Shown here: positions 18,666 through 60,454 of the stretch, in pieces | Numbering within the stretch: position 1 is the stretch's first letter | How the letters are laid out: each line of letters opens with the position of its first letter | Source of the DNA: Octopus vulgaris | Taxonomy: Eukaryota | Assembly: GCA_951406725.2 (NCBI GenBank) | Contig: OX597816.1 | Location: 89,466,001-89,530,000 of the forward strand | Length of the DNA stretch: 64,000 nt | Direction: 5' to 3' | The notes under the pieces: model-generated | The model's input: the letters and a program-made list of their open reading frames with translations, nothing else | What the model was told of the DNA's origin: nothing | Database searches by the model: none | Program-made: the position numbers and the translations under genes

Positions 18666-18879
18666 ATTCAAATGCAAAATGGCTGGCGACTAACATCCCG
18701 CTTGAAACTCAAGAGTGCCGACGAATTTGAATCACACTGTTTTGAACCATACATGTAACGCCTAGTAAATTTGTTGAGTGCCGTCTTTCGTTTGTCCACT
18801 CACTCGTATGTGTGTGTGTTTCTGTGTGTCTGTGTGTGTAAAATTCATATAGATGCATATATCATCTCAGATATATATA

Positions 18880-19110
18880 TATTTCTTTACTACCCACAAG
18901 GGGCCAAACACAGAGGGGACAAACAAGGACAGACAAAGGGATTAAGTCGACTACATCGACCCCAGTGCGTAACTGGTACTTAATTTATCGACCCCGAAAG
19001 GATGAAAGGCAAAGTCGACCTCGGCGGAATTTGAACTCGGAACGTAACGACAGACGGAATACGGCTACGAATTTCGCCCGGCGTGCTAACGTTTCTACCA
19101 GCTCGCCGCC
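18880..19110 (-). mobile_element. Young full-length SINE family A (tail type A) with 20-bp TSD
   Basis: Head ggcggcgagctggtagaaacgttagcacg, B-box-like gttcaaattcc, core gcctttcatcctttcggggtcgataaattaagtaccag. TSD tatcatctcagatatatata at 18860-18879 and 19111-19130. Confidence 0.92.
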
Positions 19111-19471
19111 TATCATCTCAGATATATATAGAAGTAACGTTCGCGCTGTTCCGTACGAACCGACATTTCTACCATTTTTTAACACCAAGAGGATTTCTTC
19201 TCTAGCTGGTTATCGATGCAATCTGCACACGATATATATTGCAAACAGGAGAGCGAACCCCCATCATCTTCCTACTCTTCCCTCCTTGCAATATATATCG
19301 GCTGCAGATCGCATCAATAACCATTTAGAGGAGGCGTTCTTGGGCTAAAAAACGGCAGTAATATTGGTTCCTACGGAGCAGCCATGTTGAAGTGCCGACA
19401 AACATTACTCCTCGGTATAGTTACTACTTTCATCTCTTATAGTTATTTTCTAACTATCTACTTTGTTTTTA

Positions 19472-31204: not shown

Positions 31205-33385
31205 TAAGTTTGACTTTTGCTTTATGTCTGTACAAGTTGGCTCCAAGTCTCACCCAGAGACCTCAAGAGACAACAGGTTGGAAGTTCACGTTGTTGTTAT
31301 GCCTAGTGTGCCATATATTTGGGTTGCTTTTTTTGGTGTTGTACTAGTGAATGTCTAATACATAAATTTTTTTTAAAATGTTTGTTTTAAACCTTGGGAT
31401 TACATAGAGAGTATTTTGCGTAGGATATGAGCAGTTCCCATGAGCACTATCTTTTGAATTTCTGCCATTTTGAGGTTTCCTGGTATCTGAGTTAGGCAGC
31501 AATCAGCCCCTTTCGCTATCATTCCCAGGGCACCTGTGACAACAGGTATTGTTTTAGTCTTCAGGTTCCACATTTTGCTGATTTCTATTTCAAGATCTTT
31601 ATATTTGCTCAGTTTTTGGTAGGTCTTGACAGATACGTTTATATCGATTGGGACAGTCATATCAATGAGAAGGCATGTTCTTTGTCTGAAGTCTTTCACT
31701 ATGATGCCTGGCCTATTTGCATCTATCTTTCTGTCATTTTAGATGGTGAAGTTCCAGAGGAGTGAGATGTGGTCATTTTTAAGCACTGGAGGTGGATTGT
31801 GTTCCCACCAGTTTTTTTCATGGGGCAAATCCAGGTTTTTGCAAATTACCCAGTGAATATATTGTGCAGCTCTAACATGCCTGTTGAGGTACTCTGTAGG
31901 CGCTAGAAGACTGCATTTGGAGACAACATGATCAGTGGTCTCATTTTGTTGTCGGCATACACGACATGTTGGGCTACTGCCGTTCTTTAATATGTTGGCC
32001 GGGTAGTTTCTTGTTGGTAGGCATTGATCTTGAGCTGCTATGATAAACCCTTCTGTTTCAGATTTTAAGCCAGAGGCCATTAGCCATTGATGTGTCAGGG
32101 CTTTGTCAATATCTGCATTATTCACTCTCTTTGGGCATTTGCCATAGAGAGGTTTTTCTTGCCATTTATTATTCAGAATATCTAAGGCCGCAGTTTTGGC
32201 ACGGGTTTTCATGCGCCTAGCTTTTTCTGTGCTTGTTTCTTGTATGTCTATCTCTAATTCCGAAATTGGCTGTATTCGGAATTCACTTAGATATTCCTTT
32301 GCCTGTTTTGTTACTGAGTATGATGCTTTCTTGTTTTCATGTTTTGAGACAAGTTTTAACATCCAGTCCTCAGACTTTTTCAGGTAGGTGTCTAGGCCAA
32401 TTGAAGCAATCTTCATTGTTATTGCCAGTTGCAAAAGACCACGGCCTCCCTCGTTTCTTGGCAGATAAAGTCGTTCTGTATCTGCCTTAGGGTGGTGCAT
32501 TCTATGCATTGTCAACAGTTTTCTTATTTTTCTGTCGAGCTGACATATTTCAGTAATTGACCAGTTAACGATATTGAAACTGTAAGTCACGACTGGTATG
32601 GCTAATGCATTGATCGCTTCGATCCTGTTTCTTGCATTCAGCTCTGTCTTGAGTATTGCTCTCACTCTTCGATAGCATTCTCTCCTGATCCTTTACTTCA
32701 TCTCTGAATGCCTTATTCCGTTCCCTTCAATTACCCCTAGGTACTTGTAGCTCTCCACTGGGTCTAGTTCTTTTATATTCTGCTGGTCAAGGTTAACGTT
32801 AGATGTTTCTGTCATTTTTCCTTTGATAAAGGTAGCTTTTGCACATTTATCAAGGCCGAATTGCATTCTGATGTCGTCACTGAATTGTTTGACTATCGCT
32901 AGTAAGCCCTTGAGTTGTTGGTCATTTTTTGCAAAAAGCTTTAAATCATCCATGTAAATGAGATGATTTATATTTTTATCAAACATTTTATACCCGTACT
33001 GCGCGTCATTGAGCAGTTTTAAGAGAGGTATTAAGGCTAAACAAAAGAGGAGTGGTGACAGTGAGTCACCCTGGAAAATGCGACACGAAAGTTTTACATC
33101 ACCAGCATTTAGGGATTCATTGTCACTGTTCAGAGTTAGTGTGGTTCTCCATGATCTCATACTTACAGTCAAAAAGTTTCGCAGAGTCGGTGCTATCTTA
33201 TACATTTCCAGGCATTTCCTAATCCAGCTATGTGGTAGGCTATCAAAAGCCATTTTATAGTCTATCCAGGCTATTGATAAGTTTTTGTGTCGTTTGTGAC
33301 AATCTTCTAAGATCATCTTATTGATGAGTAGTTGATCTTTACAGCCGTAGGATCCACGTTTACATCCTTTCTGTTCATTAGGGAA
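31204..33385 (-). mobile_element. 5'-truncated R4/Dong-clade non-LTR retrotransposon (RT + CCHC zinc knuckle + restriction-like endonuclease) flanked by (TAA)n on both sides
   Basis: [91 protein letters not shown] region (NRPGIIVKD...LIDMTVP...KLSKYKDL...IPVVTGALG). Two frameshifts (~32690, ~31740). 3'UTR 31204-31399, then (TAA)n at 31151-31203. Confidence 0.93.
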
Positions 33386-34118: not shown

Positions 34119-34341
34119 CACAACAATGGACAGCCGAAATAGCTAAGTCGATTTCGCCCGACGTGCAAACTTACTTATTATCGACAAAAGGTAATGGAGT
34201 CGAAATACCGCTAAGTCGATTTCGCCCGACGTGCAATGGTAGCGGTATTTCGGCTGCCATGACGCCGTGAGGCAAATTCCGACCTCGGCGGAATTTGAAC
34301 TCACAACGTAAATGTATGCAGCCGAAATACCGCTAAGCATT

Positions 34342-34548
34342 GCACGTCGGGCGAAATGCTTAGCGGTATTTCGGCTGCCATTACGTTGTGAGTTCAAATT
34401 CCGCCGAGGTCGACTTTGCCTTTCATCCTTTCATGGTCGATAAATTAAGTACCAGTTACGCACTGGGGTCGATATAATCGACTTAATACCTATGTCTGTC
34501 CATGTTTGTCCCCTCTATGTTTAGCCCCTTGTGGGTAATAAAGAAATA
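34342..34548 (+). mobile_element. SINE family A (tail type A) preceded by inverted and scrambled copies of its own head (34125-34341)
   Basis: Core gcctttcatcctttcatggtcgataaattaagtaccag; inverted arms 34280-34341 and 34355-34412. Confidence 0.85.
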
Positions 34549-43136: not shown

Positions 43137-43718
43137 GGCGGCGAGCTGGCAGAATCGTTAGCACACCGAGCGAAACGCTTAGCGGTATTTCGTCTGTCTT
43201 CGCGTTCTGAGTTCAAATTCCGCCGAGGTCGACTTTGCCTTTCATCTTTTCGGGGTCGATAAATTAAGTACCAGTTACGCACTGGGGTCGATATGATCGA
43301 ATTAATCCGTTGTCTGTCCTTGTTTGTCCTCTATGTGTTTAGCCCCTTGTGGGTAGTAACGAAATAGGTATTTCGTCTGTCTTCATGTTCTGAGTTCAAA
43401 TTCTGCCGAGGTCGACTTTGCCTTTCATCTTTTCGGGGTCAATTAAATAAGTACCAGTTACGTATTAGGGTCGATATAATTGGCTTAATCCGTTTCTCTG
43501 TCCTTGTTTGTCCCTTCTGTGTTTAGTCTCTTGTGGGTAGTAAAGAAATCGGTATTTCGTCTGTCTTTACGTTCTGAGTTCAAATTCCGCCGAGGTCGAC
43601 TTTGCCTTTCAACCTTTCGGATCGATAATTTAAGTACCAGTAGCATACTGAGGTCGATATAATCGACTGGACCCTCCCGCCAAAAAACATTTCGGGCCTT
43701 GTGTCTAAAGGAGAAAAG
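43137..43718 (+). mobile_element. Trimeric SINE family A (A+A+B) inserted as one unit
   Basis: Three tandem cores; TSD aatatgaactatg at 43119-43131 and 43719-43731. Confidence 0.9.
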
Positions 43719-45442: not shown

Positions 45443-48236
45443 GATGCGTTAGAGTTGGTCTTACCTTTAGATAATTCTAACGCATTGCAATCCGATGATG
45501 GTTTAGCTTGCCGAATCTTAGAAGTCAATATCAACAACATTATTTTTTAAAAATAACAAATTTGTGCTCTACAAAAGTATATACTAACCCATCAGATTAA
45601 TGTAAAATCATTTTTATTGCCTTTATCGAGTGAGATCCCTATATTTTCATGATTCTTTTCTATCGAATATCACACTCTCTATATGAAGGCGACTGTTCGG
45701 TAATGGTGGGTCACCAGTGTTTGGTACATAATGCTTTTATGAAAAAGTGTGATAGAAATTACCGGCCTTGAACTTTACTGTTTGCATTGGGGGTATCGAT
45801 GTGACCAGTTGTTCCAGACGGTGTGACTTTGCCCTTTTTCTTACAAAAGTTGCAGCTTTTCTGGTCTTTCCAATTCAATTTCCTCTTACATTTTATCTAA
45901 CTGTAGCAGCGTCTTGCTTCCATTTATTTTCAGAAACAATACTTTTCTCCAATTAATGAAAGAGACAGTGCTTGTCGCTAGAAGCCCTTCTGCTTTCATC
46001 ATCAAGCTATAACATGTCACCTGAAATCTGGAGATAGACTTTTCTCGGGATGAAGCCCTGTGTATACTTTATGATTAGACGCTGTCACTTGAGTACATAT
46101 TTTCTTAGTATCTTTTCTTTTGATGATGACTAACAAATCTACTGATTTAAAGTGATATTGTTTATTACTTAAATATTCTTCACTGGGGTTTGTCCTAACA
46201 CAAAGAGAGTTAAGTTTCACCTACACAGTATAATGATCTGAGATGCCTAAATGTACTAGGGCTATAGCTTCCGCAAAATTCTCAATCAAAAGAACATTAT
46301 GAATAGGGTCTCCTCTTGTAGGTATATTTACGATCAGTAGTCAAGCAAGACAGTCATGAAGCCGTTATCTGGGACGACCAGCAAATAATCGTGTGGTTAC
46401 TTAAACTCTACTTCTTCGACGCATTTGACATTCTTTTGAAATCCACAAATTAATTAATATTCTATGTCAGCAAATAGGTAGGCAATTACTACCTGAAGAA
46501 TAAAATGAAATAATATTGCTTGGGTTGTATTATGAAGGAGATATGAATTATCTCTGCTTGTTTCGTTTCACTGAATTCAAAAGTCTGCCAGGTTAATTCT
46601 TTTGGCATAAATCGGAGTCAGAGCTCATTAATTAATTAACTTACATATAAATTGCTATACATCAACTTTGTTACGCATGAGAAACTCGATCTCTCCTGAA
46701 AATCTGATTGTTCTGTAGTTAAGCTGAAGCTTCAAATTTCTCGTATAATTACAATGATCCCCTGATAATTACTGATAGAATCTAATCTAATTGGTGGAAT
46801 GTTTGTTCTTAATAATGAGTGATTTTCATAGGTATTAAGCCTGAAGTTTAGTTATTATGGTAAGTGGAATTTCGGAAATTGCAATGGTCATCTTTTTTTT
46901 CTTTTTTTTTTTGCCTGAAATACCACTACATGCGTACATGAAGCAATTTCCAAATGAGAATTAGACGGCCTTGATTCAATGAGAAATTATCACAGAACTA
47001 CGAAATAGCCACTGTAATATATCATTAATGTACTTTACGCATATCACAGCAATTTAAATCACCATAAGACAAGATTTGCTACCATGATTTTTTAATTTTA
47101 TTTTATATGTTGTTGTTCTTTAAATGTAGTCTACAATGTATGTATATGTTGATGAAACATTACCACAGGTTGTAATCACTTAGACATACTCTAATATAGA
47201 TCCCTACATGTGATTATACTAAAAAACAGTTCACTTAATTGGATCTGAATGTGTGTTTTTTGGAAACAATGAAGTTGCATCTAATCGAAGTCAAAGTTTT
47301 TACAAATTTTGCAATATTAAGGAAACCACTATGCATATTGAAAAAAACGTGCTCACCTATGCTGACTATGGTTTGAAGAAATAACAACTACGGCCTTCAT
47401 AAATAAAACAAATGCTAGTTGTTGCAGCATCGGATTTCTTGAAGTGAGCATATCTCCTTAACAAATCCTAAACTTTGCAACAGTTATTATTTTTTCAGGG
47501 ACTCCAAAACTGATGGAATTGGGGTCGGAAGTTATCCTGAAATCGGGGATCTGGCTCAAATATTTGCAATAAATTGTACTTACTAAATGTACCAAAAGGC
47601 CAGATTGCGGTGTCCACTGGATTAAGTCTACCTGCGCTGAATGCATCCTATTCAAAGTCAGGATTGACTGTGAGATTTTGAAATTAAATTCTCTAGCTGG
47701 CCGAATCAGACTTTAAGTATTTTTCTATATGATGTGAAAGCGTTAACTTCATTAACTAGTGTCCTCTACTTTGTGGTGTAGATTTGCATTTTCTATCTGA
47801 TGTCTCTAAACTGTTATTATTTTCTCTCTTTAATGTCAGTTTGTGATCCACAGATAGTGTTATGTCTTTACTGCTGTATTTTTATCTAAATGACAGGTGT
47901 GTGCGTGCGTGTGTCTGCGTGCGTGTGTCGGCGTGCGTGCGTCTGAGAGATAAATAAATTGAGTTAAACATTGGTAGTATTCCAGAAGGAATAATACCAA
48001 TGTTTTCTTCGAAACATATGTGGGAATTTAAAAGATTTAAATAGCACCTGCGCTTAACTCAATTTATTTAATTATCTATATCATACTAAGACATTTCACC
48101 TAAACCTGGAGTTTCTACCTCTATAAGTAGGTTGTTACATCCTTGGTACTTGCTTGAATTTTTGCTACCCTGGTAAATATTTATTTTTTCATTGTTATTT
48201 GTAAACATTGAAAAAACACATGCATTTATATATGTG

Positions 48237-48297
<61 letters not shown>

Positions 48298-48376
48298 TGT
48301 ATGTATGTATGTATGTATGTATATATGTTTGTATGTATGTATATGATAACAATCCTGTGATGGAACTTATAAATAC

Positions 48377-48419
<43 letters not shown>

Positions 48420-48568
48420 AAGCAAGACAGTTGCAGCAGAGCTCTACGTCTTTCTGCCTTAACGTTTGAAAAATCAGAGAAACCTGTGAAACCGGTAAAA
48501 TCTTTAAAAAAATTTAAACAAAATATCTAAAAAAAATCCCAGTGCATTTTCAACTTCTTTTTCCATAT
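48420..48568 (+). mobile_element. Short microsatellite-flanked element with a decayed U3-A8 hammerhead motif (48463-48500)
   Basis: UUGAAAA-atcag(agaaac)ctgt-GAAA-c(cg)-GUA with a poor stem I; homologous to 17390-17500. Confidence 0.5.
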
Positions 48569-48569
48569 A

Positions 48570-48607
<38 letters not shown>

Positions 48608-48609
48608 AT

Positions 48610-48832
48610 GAGCGAACCACCTGAGCTCCACCCGGTTCCGACAGAAGGTAATGCTGAACTTCTGCTGACTCTTTCGCCACAGCTTTCTTGATCTTTCCTC
48701 CTACATCTAGCAGCTCACATGCGACGGACCGGTGTCCCGTCCTGGTGGGGAACCTATACACCAATGAAACTGGGAATCCGGCCCTTCTGAGCCAGGCATT
48801 GCTCGAGAAGGAACAAACAACAATAACAACAA
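48610..48832 (+). mobile_element. Retroelement 3' end carrying tail type 1, ending in (CAA)n
   Basis: tgcgacggaccggtgtcccgtcctggtggggaac...gaaactgggaatccggccc...gagccaggc is similar to 25118-25195. Confidence 0.7.
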
Positions 48833-49382
48833 TATAATATATATATATATATCAGGTTAGTTTACCATTAAACAATAGATGAAACGGTGCATCGTATAAG
48901 AAATTACAGGGTAAATGTTTTTTTAATTTTCTCCTGGTTTGCGGAATTAATGTTATTTTGCGGTTGAAGCTTTGGCTGTTATTTCTAGTGGGTGAATGGC
49001 CTATTATGGCCGTTCCTTGATTGTGATGTTGAACTTATAAATGGTCTATGACTATTTAATTTTTTCCCACTAGGCCGCTGGTGGCAAAAAAATTCTACAA
49101 AATTTTTTGCCACCCTATATTGATTAATTATGAATTTTCTGGTTAATTCCGTAATGGAATCGGCGGCTTATATTTATTTGCTGCCGATAAATTTGGCGCG
49201 AGTGCGATGATTTGAAAATTTTAGGTCAGATATTACCGAGGCAGGGATAGAATCGTGAAAATATATATCCGATATATGTTTTATATATGATATATATATA
49301 TATGTAAGATTGGCTTGATTTAATTTAATCAGGTTAGTTTACCATTAAACAATAGATGAAACCGTGTGTTGAAAAAGATATT

Positions 49383-49723
49383 GTTATATTTCGTTGTGGT
49401 CATTTTATTCTTTTTTGGGCCAAATAATCACACACACTATATATTCGTTCTCCACTCATTTATTTCTGTTTTTATTCTAACTCATATCCAGTGTCCGGAA
49501 ATCTTTGGTCACACATCTGTGAACTCTTCAGCGACAGTTTCCGTCTTCGTGTGTGCTCTTGCTCCATCAAGGACCGAAAGTGTCGCTGAAACGGTCACAG
49601 ATACGTGACGAAAATTTTACGGAGAATGGACATAAGTTAGAATACAAACAGTAATAAACTAGTGAAGAACGAATATATAGGGCGTGTGTTTGTTTGGCAA
49701 AAAATATGACCGTCCCAAAATAC

Positions 49724-49725
<2 letters not shown>
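49383..49725. repeat. Diverged ~160-bp inverted repeat (49383-49547 / 49569-49725) ending at (TA)n
   Basis: For example ctatatattcgttctccact vs agtgaagaacgaatatatag, and cagcgaca vs tgtcgctg. Confidence 0.8.
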
Positions 49726-49763
<38 letters not shown>

Positions 49764-49766
<3 letters not shown>

Positions 49767-49893
49767 AAAACAGAAAATGGAGAAATATAGATGAACAGCA
49801 ATTGAACTGCAGTCTATTTGTATTGAATTAATTAATATTAATTGATGTAAGTCAATTGCTGTTCATCTATATTTCTCCATTTTCTGTTTTCTT
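49764..49893. repeat. Perfect 42-bp inverted repeat starting at (TA)n
   Basis: aagaaaacagaaaatggagaaatatagatgaacagcaattga (49764-49805) and its reverse complement (49852-49893). Confidence 0.95.
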
Positions 49894-50063
49894 CAAATTT
49901 TGATTCTTGATAAACTCATGTTTATCTTTGTCTTTACCTATAATTTATGAGCATAATATGCTTATATATTTCTCACCATGATTAAACATAGGTAATATAC
50001 CGGTAGTATAATGGATACTTCTATCCATTATTTTAACCTCTAATTCAGCTAACTTTATAATTT

Positions 50064-50120
<57 letters not shown>

Positions 50121-50146
50121 AAAAAAGCAACAAGAATGGATTAAAA

Positions 50147-50234
50147 TCTCGGTACGATCGTTTCGTACGATGACATCTTTAATAAGCTACAAAAAATGCA
50201 GTGAATACAGATGGCTCGTACTCGTCAGCCGAAA
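50147..50234 (-). ncRNA. Type I hammerhead ribozyme motif (mirror copy)
   Basis: Reverse complement of the 50713-50800 motif, with one stem II mismatch. Confidence 0.75.
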
Positions 50235-50712
50235 AAACATCAGAGAATTCCCAAACATCAAAAGGGGTAGATACAAAAGAGGTTGTAAGATTAACTGCAT
50301 TGAAGAAAGTTCGATTCATGGAGATCCGATGAAAGGTTTTAAACTTACAGAATTTGTGCATGTCTACATATAGCTCATATTGAATTTTTAATCAAGTTGT
50401 GTGAAGAAATTTTCGGATACAGTCATGCAAAATTTCTGAAAATCCGAGTAAGAGGCAAAGTGACTGCCATATCGATATGGCAGTCACTTTGCCTCTTACT
50501 CGGATTTTCAGAAATTTTGCATGACTGTATCCGAAAATTTCTTCACACAACTTGATTAAAAATTCAATATGAGCTATATGTAGACATGCACAAATTCTGT
50601 AAGTTTAAAACCTTTCATCGGATCTCCATGAATCGAACTTTCTTCAATGCAGTTAATCTTACAACCTCTTTTGTATCTACCCCTTTTGATGTTTGGGAAT
50701 TCTTTGATGTTT

Positions 50713-50800
50713 TTTCGGCTGACGAGTACGAGCCATCTGTATTCACTGCATTTTTTGTAGCTCATTAAAGATGTCCTCGTACGAAACGATCGTACCGAGA
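50713..50800 (+). ncRNA. Type I hammerhead ribozyme motif with canonical core
   Basis: tttcgg-CUGACGA-gtacgag[43 nt]ctcgtac-GAAA-c(gatc)-GUA-ccgaga. Stem I 6 bp (one G-U), stem II 7 bp, self-complementary ACGAUCGU stem III. Confidence 0.82.
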
Positions 50801-50947
50801 TTTTAATCCATTCTTGTTGCTTTTTCCTATTTGTAATCACCCCACTTGTCGTATGGTTAACGCCATATAGATTTCAGGTGCATCCTAGTTAAGGACCATA
50901 TTCATGTGAATTCTTTAGAATTCACTAGAATCTCAATTACTTAACCG

Positions 50948-51012
<65 letters not shown>

Positions 51013-51218
51013 AATAATACAATCAACAAACAAACGCATAACAACCAATGAGGAGACCAATGAACAAATGTTAAACAAATACACAACACTTGCAAGTCAA
51101 GACACAATTTAGCAAAACTGGGCAGGATTCTGTAATTCGACAAGCAAAGGCATAACAACTACTGAAATGACAAATGTGTAACAATATACAGATAAATAAT
51201 TTCAGATAAATAGTTTAG

Positions 51219-51262
<44 letters not shown>

Positions 51263-51571
51263 GCAAATAAACGTAAACGCAAAAAATAGAAAGGCAAATT
51301 CTCAAATAAAAGGACGACAAAAAATAATGTCTTAATTGAAAAGTATTGGAATCCAGCCAATGAAAATAATGCTTATAGTCAAAATAATGAAGCTGTTCTA
51401 TAGAACCTACATGAAAATCGAAAACAAAGTTCTCACCTGAAGACTGTAGGAATAGATGGATGGAAATATATGTATATTGACAAAAACTAAGATCACAAAC
51501 ATTCCACCTGTAACCAAACTATCTCCCAGACGTAATGTATCCAGAACTACGGAAGCAAATGTGTACTCTTT

Positions 51572-51636
51572 AAAGACGGTTATTGTTATTTAACTCAATT
51601 TAGCCTTAACTGGGCTAAATAACAATAACCGTCTTT
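51572..51636. repeat. 21-bp perfect inverted repeat
   Basis: aaagacggttattgttattta / taaataacaataaccgtcttt. Confidence 0.9.
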
Positions 51637-51672
51637 GAGTTGACCTACGATCAGTCAATACTGTTCTAGTCG

Positions 51673-51905
51673 AAGACGGCGAACTGGCAGAAACGTTAGC
51701 ACGCCGGGCGAAATGCGTAGCCGTATTTCGTCTGTCTTTACGTTCTGAGTTCAAATTCTGCCGAGGTCGACTTTGCCTTTCATCCTTTCAGGGTCGATTA
51801 AATAAGTACCAGTTACGCACTGGGGTCAATATAATCGACTTAATCTCTTTGTCTGTCCTTGGTTGTCCTCTCTGTGTTTAGCCCCTTGTGGGTAGTAAAG
51901 AAATA
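51673..51905 (+). mobile_element. Young SINE family A (tail type A) with 16-bp TSD
   Basis: TSD aatactgttctagtcg at 51657-51672 and 51906-51921. Confidence 0.92.
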
Positions 51906-52469
51906 AATACTGTTCTAGTCGTGACTAGCCTTCATTTTCTTACACACAGTGCACTTTTAATATCTAAAATGCCTTTCTCTTCTAAGGCGCTAAGGTGTGA
52001 TTTCGAGAATTATTTCCAGCGGGTAAGAAAACAAACCTCATATTTAACCCACCAGAGGACGATGTTCATGGTCTTTTGGATCAGTCAAGGCTGTGAAATA
52101 AAAAGAGCTCCTTCCTTTCTGTCATTTTTTTTTTTCCATATTTTCTGCGTAACACTAAATTCTTGTTCGTTTTTAAAACCTTTTATTCTCTTTCTTTCTC
52201 ATTGACTCTTAATTACCTTTACATTCAATCTATATACACTCTTCTTTCTTTCTCTCTCTTTCACTCTCTACTATCTCTCAGTTTCTCTTTTTTTTCCACA
52301 CTATATTCTTGTCTACCTCATCTTTTAGGTTTCTCTTATCGTTGCTTACTGACTCATTTTTACTTCTCATTGTTTCACTTTGCAGTCACACCTTTCATAC
52401 CTGTCTTTTTTCCTTTTCTCCAACACCCTTTTTCTCCAATCAACTATCCAATGTACCTTAATCTTCCCA

Positions 52470-56450: not shown

Positions 56451-56466
56451 TTATCATCTAAATATT

Positions 56467-56844
56467 CTTTTCTACTCTAGACACAAGGCCCGAAATTTGG
56501 GGGGAGAGGACCAGTCGATAAGATCGACCCCAGTACGCAACTGGTACTTAATTTATTGACCCCAAAGGATGAAAGGCAAAGTCGACCTCGGCAGAATTTG
56601 AACTTAGAACGTAAAGACAGACGAAATGCCTATTTCTTTACTACCCACACAGGGGCTAAACACAGAGAGGACAAGCAAGGACAGACAAACGGATTAAGTC
56701 GATTACATCGACCCCAGTGCGTAACTCGTACTTGATTTATCGACCCCCAAAGGATGAAAGGCAAAGTCGACCTCAGCGGAATTTGAACTCAGAACGTAAA
56801 GACAGACGAAATACCGCTTAGCATTTCGCCCGGCGTGCTAACGT
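56467..56844 (-). mobile_element. Dimeric SINE family A (A+B) with 16-bp TSD
   Basis: Two cores; TSD ttatcatctaaatatt (56451-56466) and ttatcgtctaaatatt (56845-56860). Confidence 0.9.
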
Positions 56845-58489
56845 TTATCGTCTAAATATTACTACACATTACTTATGCTATTATGATGCCAATACTATTA
56901 CAAGAAACTAGTAGCAAATAATAAAACTATATTCATTGTAATACCAAAAGCAACATCAACGGAAGAAAAGACAACAAACGCCATTAAAACTCGTTTGTTG
57001 AACTCTTGTTAGGTAAATGACGAGAGACATGTCAATATTAGTTAACTTTTATGAATGAGCGGAAACCACCATGGGAGGCTATTACATTAAGCATATTAGC
57101 ACTTGATTAAATTTTGTGATTCATAATCACATACACTCCTGTCATTATGTTTATATTTCATGCCAATTCGTATACATTTCTTGTACATCTGTACTGTAAA
57201 TATCTATCACAACTAGCAAGTATTGGACAGGTTTATGTTACACTGAGAAGGTTTAATAAAACCGAAATATGTTTCTGGGTGCCATTGTGCTTACAAAACA
57301 TTACATTAAGTTAATATTAGTTCTCGCGCTAATGCTTTTATCTCCTCATAGCGTGAGTAATTTGAATATTAATTTATCAATATTTCGGAGTTTTCAAATC
57401 TTTGCTTTAATCAAATTTTATTAACATTAGTTAATCTACATATATCCAACCTCTCATCATTGTAAATGTCTTATTCACTACGTGAAGTATATTAGCACGC
57501 ACCCATCTAGGTTTATGTTAGTTTTACTAGAAGTGGGCCATGGTAGATATCGTAAATCTCTTTTTATCTCAAAGTACATTAACATTATGTTTTTATTTAT
57601 TTACCGAACTGTATTCCTACCGATACATAGTACCACTTGTCTTTGTGGATTCGTGAATTTAACTTTGTTTCATACATAAATAAGCTTAACAAAAGAATCA
57701 ACAGCTCGTGTCAATTTAAGTGTGTAGTTGTACAGCAGCAAATCCTAATCAAGCCATTTTACCACACAATACAGCAGAAAAAAAGAAAGAAGAGAAAAAT
57801 GAAACAGTAAGGGAAAATGTAAAGCAGCATTAGAAAATAGGATGAAAATCAAGACTTGGTGAATGAAATTCAGAGAGTAAATAAAGAAAAGATTTGTGGT
57901 TCGTAGATTATGTTGAAATCTGAGTAAACTGCGACAGTAGATATGAAGGCACCGAAACATTGATTGTATTAGTTATTTATTAGCTTAAAACTATTGATTC
58001 GTTCTGAGGTTGCGACATTTTCTTCGGCAAAAGAAAGTGTAGGGTTTGGATGAACAGCTTTATTAGCTAAAACATACCTTTATGCACCTTTATAATTTGG
58101 TCTGAAAATTAGAAGAAATAGGAACGCGATGGAGACAAATATGGTTGTTGCTATTGAAGATTTACTGTGCGACAGAAATTATGACGAACATGTTTCGAAG
58201 TTCAAAATCTTGGCTATTTGTCATGGATACAAAAAAGAACACAATACAGTAGAAAATAAAAAGAAAGGGAAGAAGGAAGAGAAAATACGGAGTGACATTA
58301 AAAAAGAGATTGGAAATTTTGTCTAGGTAACCGGTTTCCTCACAGGAAATATCGAAATTTCTGTAAGAGTAAACTTAAAGCCATTATAAGGTCACTTTTA
58401 CTGTTTGATGTAATTGTATAAAGGACCTATGTAGATTACTTTTCCTATTTCGTCCACAAATTTCTCAAGTGGCAATCAACAATAAACAA

Positions 58490-60055: not shown

Positions 60056-60454
60056 ATGCAATGAACATATGAGAAATAGGCTTACCTTTGCGTTGAATAC
60101 ATCAGTAAGTAATGTATATTTCAAATGATTTCACCTTCTGTATGTCCAACATACTCTGGGATTTTTAGTTGAAAATAACATTTTAACATCTATTTCTAAA
60201 ATATTCACTACATTAGCTCGTGTGCGTTTCTTACTTTAAACGTCCCGCTTCGTTTAAAAGAAAACTATCGAAGCGAGACGCAAACATGCTAATGTAGTGA
60301 ATATTTTAGAAATAGATGTTAAAATGTTATTTTCAACTTCAAATCCCAGAGTACGTTGGTCATACAGAGGGTGAAATCAATCGGCATTGAAATATACATT
60401 ACTTACTGATGTACCAACGCAAAGGTAAGCCTATTTCTCATATCTTCATTGCAT
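60056..60454. repeat. ~160-bp inverted repeat (60056-60217 / 60288-60454) inside a microsatellite-flanked segment
   Basis: tatgagaaataggcttacctttgcgttg vs caacgcaaaggtaagcctatttctcata; spacer hairpin cgtcccgcttcg / cgaagcgagacg. Confidence 0.93.

Follow-up and report, generated by a model that had tools for sequence, protein, structure and literature searches.

A head-to-head palindrome with a hammerhead motif on each strand in Octopus vulgaris, probably a young Penelope-like element insertion

The window analysed here, a 64-kb stretch of Octopus vulgaris DNA, contains a palindrome at 50116–50830 that is probably a young, coding-dead, 5′-truncated insertion of a Penelope-like element (PLE), with an inverted pLTR and a tail, in a (TA)n tract. 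The earlier note on this DNA had also proposed a PLE-type insertion with an inverted pLTR, and this explanation is supported by contigs of the same family in public sequencing runs and by the published anatomy of PLEs (PMC8557442, PMC3846280, PMC11167929). Membership in the PLE group is inferred, because no reverse transcriptase (RT) or endonuclease gene is linked to the family.

In the assembly, the inverted repeat is composed of two arms of 352 nt each (50122–50473 and 50474–50825) that are 99% complementary, with 0 nt between them. Three substitutions separate the arms (50171/50776, 50184/50763 and 50243/50704), and beyond the arms lies a T-run of six letters on one side and five on the other; when a gap is allowed there, the match spans 50116–50830. 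These values agree with the arms of ~357 bp with few differences that had been described before. The left arm (50119–50473, minus strand) is an inverted, 5′-truncated copy that ends at the short 3′ end of the family. As also described, it begins at a (TA)n tract, abutting a (TA)28 tract (50063–50118) that is the left half of the likely target microsatellite, and it has TAT in common with the TA target at 50116–50118. The right arm (50474–50827, plus strand) is a 5′-truncated sense copy containing a pLTR-like region without a recognisable coding frame. A tail of ~120 bp (50828–50949, plus strand), which is part of the element, follows on the right side only and leads into a (TA)30 tract (50950–51009), the right half of the likely target microsatellite. 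The head-to-head junction (50471–50476, centred at 50473/50474) is the 5′ truncation point of the element. Two claims of the earlier note stand in part: the palindrome has zero spacer in the assembly, and its perfect centre is confirmed there only and not in reads; the 118-bp extension is one-sided as described, but it is unique only within the window and is high-copy in public runs.

The arm does not recur elsewhere within the 64-kb window. Partial tandem copies forming direct pLTRs were absent at the palindrome locus, the public contigs being too short to show them. None of the four stop-free frames of the palindrome unit that were scanned had a Pfam match, each of its frames of at least 40 amino acids either follows a stop or is antisense, and no ORF start was evident 3′ of the hammerhead. 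An intron around the hammerhead, with a donor-like site at 50599 and an acceptor-like AG at 50876–50877, was ruled out because C is the prevailing letter at 50876 in the family and the listed contig ends include no joint of this kind. A bacterial promoter scan, whose bacterial model is irrelevant to the octopus host, returned two sites against 3.8 expected, and an exact 21-base pattern had 0 matches in metagenome contigs.

Arm and tail were present in 20 of the 24 public runs listed (10 studies, three organism codes), and 10 of the 20 positive runs hold at least half of 46 sampled words. None of the positive runs is on record as RNA, and the RNA label used below for one of them, X6, is a guess. 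For four public runs (X1, X2, X4 and X6), all contigs were aligned to 50452–50949, giving 522, 278, 440 and 134 aligned contigs in the four runs; of the loose ends and pieces from these alignments, 24 and 32, respectively, were listed, with 73 and 1358 more beyond the listing. The summed depth was 300–4000 times that of a single-copy-depth contig, a rough ratio that does not give a copy number, and it falls towards the 5′ end. Arm and tail are one high-copy element. One record of X4 (record 22), the sole piece listed that has 31 letters on each side, joins arm to tail (50779–50907). Its high-copy nature and its junction with the arm at other places show the extension to be a tail and not unique flank.

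The contigs also place both the centre and the ends of the palindrome within a longer element. Among the loose ends listed, family copies run on upstream of 50474 in at least one contig of X2, at least two of X4 and at least one of X6, and this continuation covers at least 30–53 letters with nearly the same letters in the three runs. The centre of the palindrome is therefore the 5′ truncation point of a longer element, and the fall in depth together with the upstream continuation in three of the four runs describes a dispersed family with 5′ truncation. At the opposite end, the short 3′ end, where the left arm stops, is followed by a TA repeat in at least six contigs of X1, and the long 3′ end at 50947–50948 is followed by TA in at least one contig each of X2, X4 and X6. 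The ends of the insertion are therefore two recurrent family ends, shared with other copies that enter (TA)n at these positions. Loose ends also recur after 50640 (X2, X4) and before 50534 (X1, X2, X4) in the listed family contigs, which suggests subfamilies or further recurrent junctions.

The case for a PLE is based on a type I hammerhead with a short palindromic helix III near the 3′ end, an inverted 5′-truncated copy joined head to head, two recurrent 3′ ends and a microsatellite target; (TA)n flanks the palindrome on each side and follows either end in other copies. The general features of PLEs described in PMC8557442 include an adjacent inverted 5′-truncated copy, a one-ended tail of 30–40 bp and a bias towards microsatellites, and palindromes are reported to be abundant at PLE head-to-head junctions, for which self-priming was proposed (PMC3846280). 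As presented in these two papers, the insertions of EN+ PLEs (Penelope/Poseidon, Neptune and Nematis) resemble the octopus insertion in the inverted 5′-truncated head-to-head copy, the junction palindrome, the one-ended extension, the microsatellite target and the hammerhead in the terminal repeat. The octopus insertion differs in that its coding part is gone, the assembled junction is perfect across 352 bp and its tail is ~120 bp long instead of 30–40 bp. The length of the tail counts against the PLE case, as does the lack of an RT or GIY-YIG frame linked to the family; any target duplication would be hidden within the (TA)n. That the structure is exceptional is not supported, given that palindromes at the inverted junction are described as the usual PLE product (PMC3846280).

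A further comparison is provided by PAc, the Poseidon of Anolis carolinensis (PMC11167929), for which cutting and extension of both target strands and two internal RT start sites that bound the tail are described. PAc shares with the octopus family two genomic ends downstream of the hammerhead, an AT-rich target and structured RNA 3′ of the hammerhead. However, the PAc ORF begins within stem II, with RT start sites 111–118 nt into the ORF, whereas the palindrome unit is without an evident ORF start and its two ends are ~120 nt apart. In Octopus vulgaris, 31 recently active PLE families have been reported, and hammerheads are not mentioned in the available part of that account (PMC13282606). 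Neither a PLE tail of ~120 bp nor a description of the family of this palindrome was found in the literature searched, the supplements of which may list either.

As claimed before, a canonical hammerhead lies near each outer end of the palindrome. The type I motif of the left arm (50147–50234, minus strand) has a stem II of 6 bp and a predicted cut after 50153, and that of the right arm (50713–50800, plus strand) has a stem II of 7 bp, a palindromic stem III and a predicted cut after 50794. CUGACGA is located at 50719 on the plus strand and 50228 on the minus strand, and the core is intact on both strands, with a stem I of 6 bp, GAAA and the self-complementary stem III ACGAUCGU. The hammerhead of each strand carries a structured 43-nt stem II insert, in which both helices named by the earlier note were recovered. 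A custom type I descriptor matched twice in the 64 kb, both times in the palindrome; order-2 Markov simulation of the window (100 copies) gave a mean of 0.03 matches per copy with the relaxed descriptor and 0 with stems of at least 6 bp. Rfam at gathering score gave 0 matches across the whole window, and none of the 38 weak matches at 48000–52000 was a hammerhead. A narrow scan of 161 bases identified Hammerhead_1 (RF00163) with 21.5 bits (E 0.0038), below the cut-off of 34; this model passes over the long helix II insert.

Compared with metazoan type I hammerheads (RF00163), for which a palindromic helix III and weak dimeric cleavage are described (PMC4209133, PMC6765202), the octopus motifs are alike in the intact core, the helix I of 6 bp, the helix II of 6–7 bp, the 2-bp helix III with a palindromic loop and the predicted dimer. 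They are unlike in the structured 43-nt helix II insert, in the Rfam score under the cut-off and in being placed on opposite strands, so that the two copies cannot pair within one transcript. Two family variants, 50788 G>A and 50791 C>T, match each other in depth (4330.7/4330.7 in X2 and 36.6/36.6 in X6) and together leave the stem III loop palindromic. This double change, both parts of which fall at CpG sites, may be one founder event.

Folding predictions place the active hammerhead fold of the monomer 4.4 kcal/mol above the minimum, in which the core pairs with stem III. With two strands, the unconstrained minimum-energy fold is a double hammerhead, at −62.8 compared with −56.8 for two monomers. 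The whole palindrome unit is predicted to fold at about −650 kcal/mol with the hammerhead wholly paired, against about −24 kcal/mol for the hammerhead fold, consistent with the earlier proposal that the hairpin competes with ribozyme folding. The prediction is thus that the hammerhead requires a dimer and that read-through RNA would hide it within the hairpin. As a transcript would contain one sense hammerhead and the hairpin would pair all of it, the palindrome copy probably has no ribozyme activity, except when transcription begins within an arm. The PAc hammerhead is reported to require protein (PMC11167929). In the octopus element, the RNA 3′ of the cut site (50795–50949) has a predicted fold with z = −3.73 (0 of 200 shuffles as good), a property that would fit a region of protein binding and RT initiation like that of PAc.

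No contig of X1, X2, X4 or X6 contained the exact zero-spacer centre. One contig each in X1, X2 and X4 crosses the centre without three letters at 50471, forming a stem-loop-stem with a 3-nt loop. These contigs are 624–632 nt long, have single-copy depth and show one or two other changed letters; they probably represent another locus and suggest a preferred junction site. The natural upstream sequence of the element ends in CAT, giving CAT-GAT-ATG, a tiny inverted repeat at the junction. The absence of the perfect centre from contigs is no disproof of the zero spacer. The zero spacer may nevertheless be a consensus error, which we regard as possible but not probable: the true centre would be the 3-nt loop, the two orientations of which were merged by two-way read mapping or polishing, and the insertion would be real. 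Apart from the loop contigs in three runs, this explanation is favoured by a window centre that equals the 3-nt loop written in both orientations, by a first depth bin (50452–50468) that contains the 3-nt-loop contig alone and by the upstream CAT, which gives microhomology for the loop version and none for the centre of the window. Its force is reduced by the probable origin of these contigs from another locus, with 19–22 letters left of the centre aligned and ~556 letters not displayed. Moreover, rare variants are dropped by contigs, and the palindrome copy seems to be absent from the three DNA runs. A zero-spacer centre would also result if two cDNAs that end at the same base were joined bluntly, or if a CATG-centred palindrome lost two central bases. 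Such a consensus error is compatible with a PLE insertion and alters the centre only.

Other origins of the family or of the mirror were also considered. The family could be a non-autonomous PLE derivative or a non-LTR retrozyme, mobilised in trans without a coding gene of its own, as no coding frame was found in the palindrome unit and the hammerhead is of type I. Retrozymes are described as related to pLTRs and as occurring as dispersed monomers, and they share with the octopus unit its non-coding nature, the type I hammerhead and the relation to PLEs (10.64898/2026.07.22.740005). However, the octopus unit is inverted and not tandem, and it is part of a longer 5′-truncated element; no tandem hammerhead units, as would mark a retrozyme, were found at the palindrome locus, the 3′ ends of the family enter (TA)n and not a next unit, and copies extend at least 30–53 letters upstream of 50474. 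We therefore consider this origin unlikely. Less credible still is an origin as a MITE, a fold-back DNA transposon in which the arms would be long terminal inverted repeats, the TA a target duplication and the extension flank. Although 50119–50827 has TA on both sides and other inverted repeats occur within the window, X4 record 22 joins the high-copy extension to the arm, and other copies pass through the position of the centre into different sequence. A fixed unit bounded by terminal inverted repeats, with unrelated flank, was accordingly not what the family contigs showed, and a MITE would leave a hammerhead with a conserved palindromic stem III unexplained.

It is similarly improbable that a single-armed insertion was later duplicated in inverted orientation by host replication or repair, or that the whole mirror is a fold-back read artefact. 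Both fold-back artefacts and template-switch inversions are documented (PMC12870357, PMC6218980, PMC10766183), and the palindrome locus itself is unconfirmed in reads. Yet the mirror ends precisely where other copies also have a 3′ end (at least six contigs in X1), the flanks beyond it are unlike each other, and the arms differ at four places, with the family state alternating between the left arm at 50763 and probably the right arm at 50776, where no difference was listed. A wholesale fold-back artefact is unlikely on these three grounds.

The PLE insertion appears to be recent, as had been proposed, because the arms differ at only three of 352 sites, corresponding to 0.43% per arm (95% range 0.09–1.2%). 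With the octopus time scale of a distance of 0.09 for 25 million years (PMC13282606), its age would be about 1 million years (0.2–3.5), if the arms have not been homogenised. Both arms have the same state at seven polymorphic family sites (50548, 50557, 50602, 50609, 50744, 50788 and 50791), in agreement with a single event. Of the four arm differences, two (the C at the 50704 position and the 6-T run) also occur in other family copies; the 6-T run makes up 18–36% of the DNA depth, and the C is found in loose ends of X2 and X6 among those listed. Arm differences that are common to other copies are not predicted by a single RNA template. The palindrome copy's own allele at 50763 was in no contig of X1, X2 or X4, so that the palindrome locus is neither confirmed nor refuted by these three DNA runs.

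The contigs also contained a possible signal of RNA editing. Across the four runs, 23 differences were listed, eight of which reach at least 10% in X6 and are below 0.1% in each of X1, X2 and X4. All eight are A>G (five) or T>C (three), compared with four of the 15 others (Fisher p = 0.0013, from sites that share contigs and hence are not independent), and seven of the eight are within 50754–50780, the region of hammerhead helix II. This suggests that the RNA of the family is A-to-I edited by ADAR, with X6 taken as RNA by guess and without matched DNA; the proposed ADAR substrate is thus hinted at for the family only and not for the palindrome locus. The combination of A>G and T>C on one stretch is expected of an edited hairpin or of two-way transcripts. 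Hyper-editing has been tied to inverted and palindromic repeats, and a palindromic repeat in frog was described as an ADAR substrate (PMC5625713). One X6 contig switches strand (50706/50783), representing either another inverted junction or a library artefact.

The surrounding window is AT-rich, with 89 rows of microsatellites and with dispersed repeats, and inverted repeats are frequent throughout the 64 kb. An older inverted repeat at 49411–49726 has 133-nt arms that are ~80% alike, a 26-nt spacer and a 22-bp extension to a (TA)19 tract. Both arms carry a minimal hammerhead-like motif that has decayed, with the core disrupted at positions that differ between the arms; there was no Rfam hammerhead match and no folding signal, and this repeat is likely a second, unrelated PLE stump. 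Where the (TA)19 tract ends, a hairpin begins (49764–49893) that has perfect 42-bp outer arms and no hammerhead. In a 55-bp direct repeat (48851–48905 and 49328–49382, 87% alike), a short (TA)n run immediately precedes the first copy. Self-inverted segments with spacers, 68–88% alike, are located at 60056–60454, 19145–19382, 357–543, 51572–51636 and 34185–34421, the last made of the common SINE-like repeat. This SINE-like repeat is present in many copies, including 43184–43666, 56462–56846, 18876–19111 and 51674–51909, with 183-bp tandem units in places. A broken non-LTR retroelement at 31403–33340 (minus strand), with RVT_1 (E 2e-21) and zf-RVT and split by a long (TAT)n, is unrelated to the palindrome.

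On the basis of these features, a pathway for the PLE insertion can be proposed. A longer dispersed element contributes its 3′ part, the arm and tail, and its copies end repeatedly at one of two 3′ positions ~120 bp apart. By analogy with PLE biochemistry, a GIY-YIG endonuclease would have cut both strands of the (TA)n tract, and reverse transcription would have begun at two internal RNA sites, so that one side received the long end and the other the short one. Both cDNAs would have stopped early, at or near 50474 (CAT-GAT-ATG), and would then have been joined head to head, and the joining of two cDNAs with long and short ends would account for the mirror arms and the one-sided tail. In a tandem precursor RNA, the hammerhead is predicted to act as a double-hammerhead dimer, whereas transcripts of the palindrome would carry one sense hammerhead buried in a 350-bp read-through hairpin. 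At the family level, such hairpins may be A-to-I edited.

As a single locus, the palindrome carries little weight, being an expected by-product of PLE insertion. The manner in which PLEs make inverted junctions and tails is, however, still open according to the published accounts (PMC8557442, PMC11167929). We tentatively raise a broader and rather doubtful possibility, that a PLE family with an unusually long (~120-nt) structured tail makes perfect palindromes when two cDNAs, primed on opposite target strands and possibly copied from two RNA templates, are joined at a fixed hot spot marking the RNA 5′ end, and that the resulting hairpins are a genome-wide ADAR substrate with editing that reaches helix II. 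If this is true, thousands of such junctions would be a natural record for reading the mechanism of PLE integration. The family is young and high-copy, its two 3′ ends are sharply defined and its junction site recurs, and junction counts could separate the self-priming and two-cDNA models. If the editing signal holds, PLE palindromes would be a built-in source of double-stranded RNA for ADAR.
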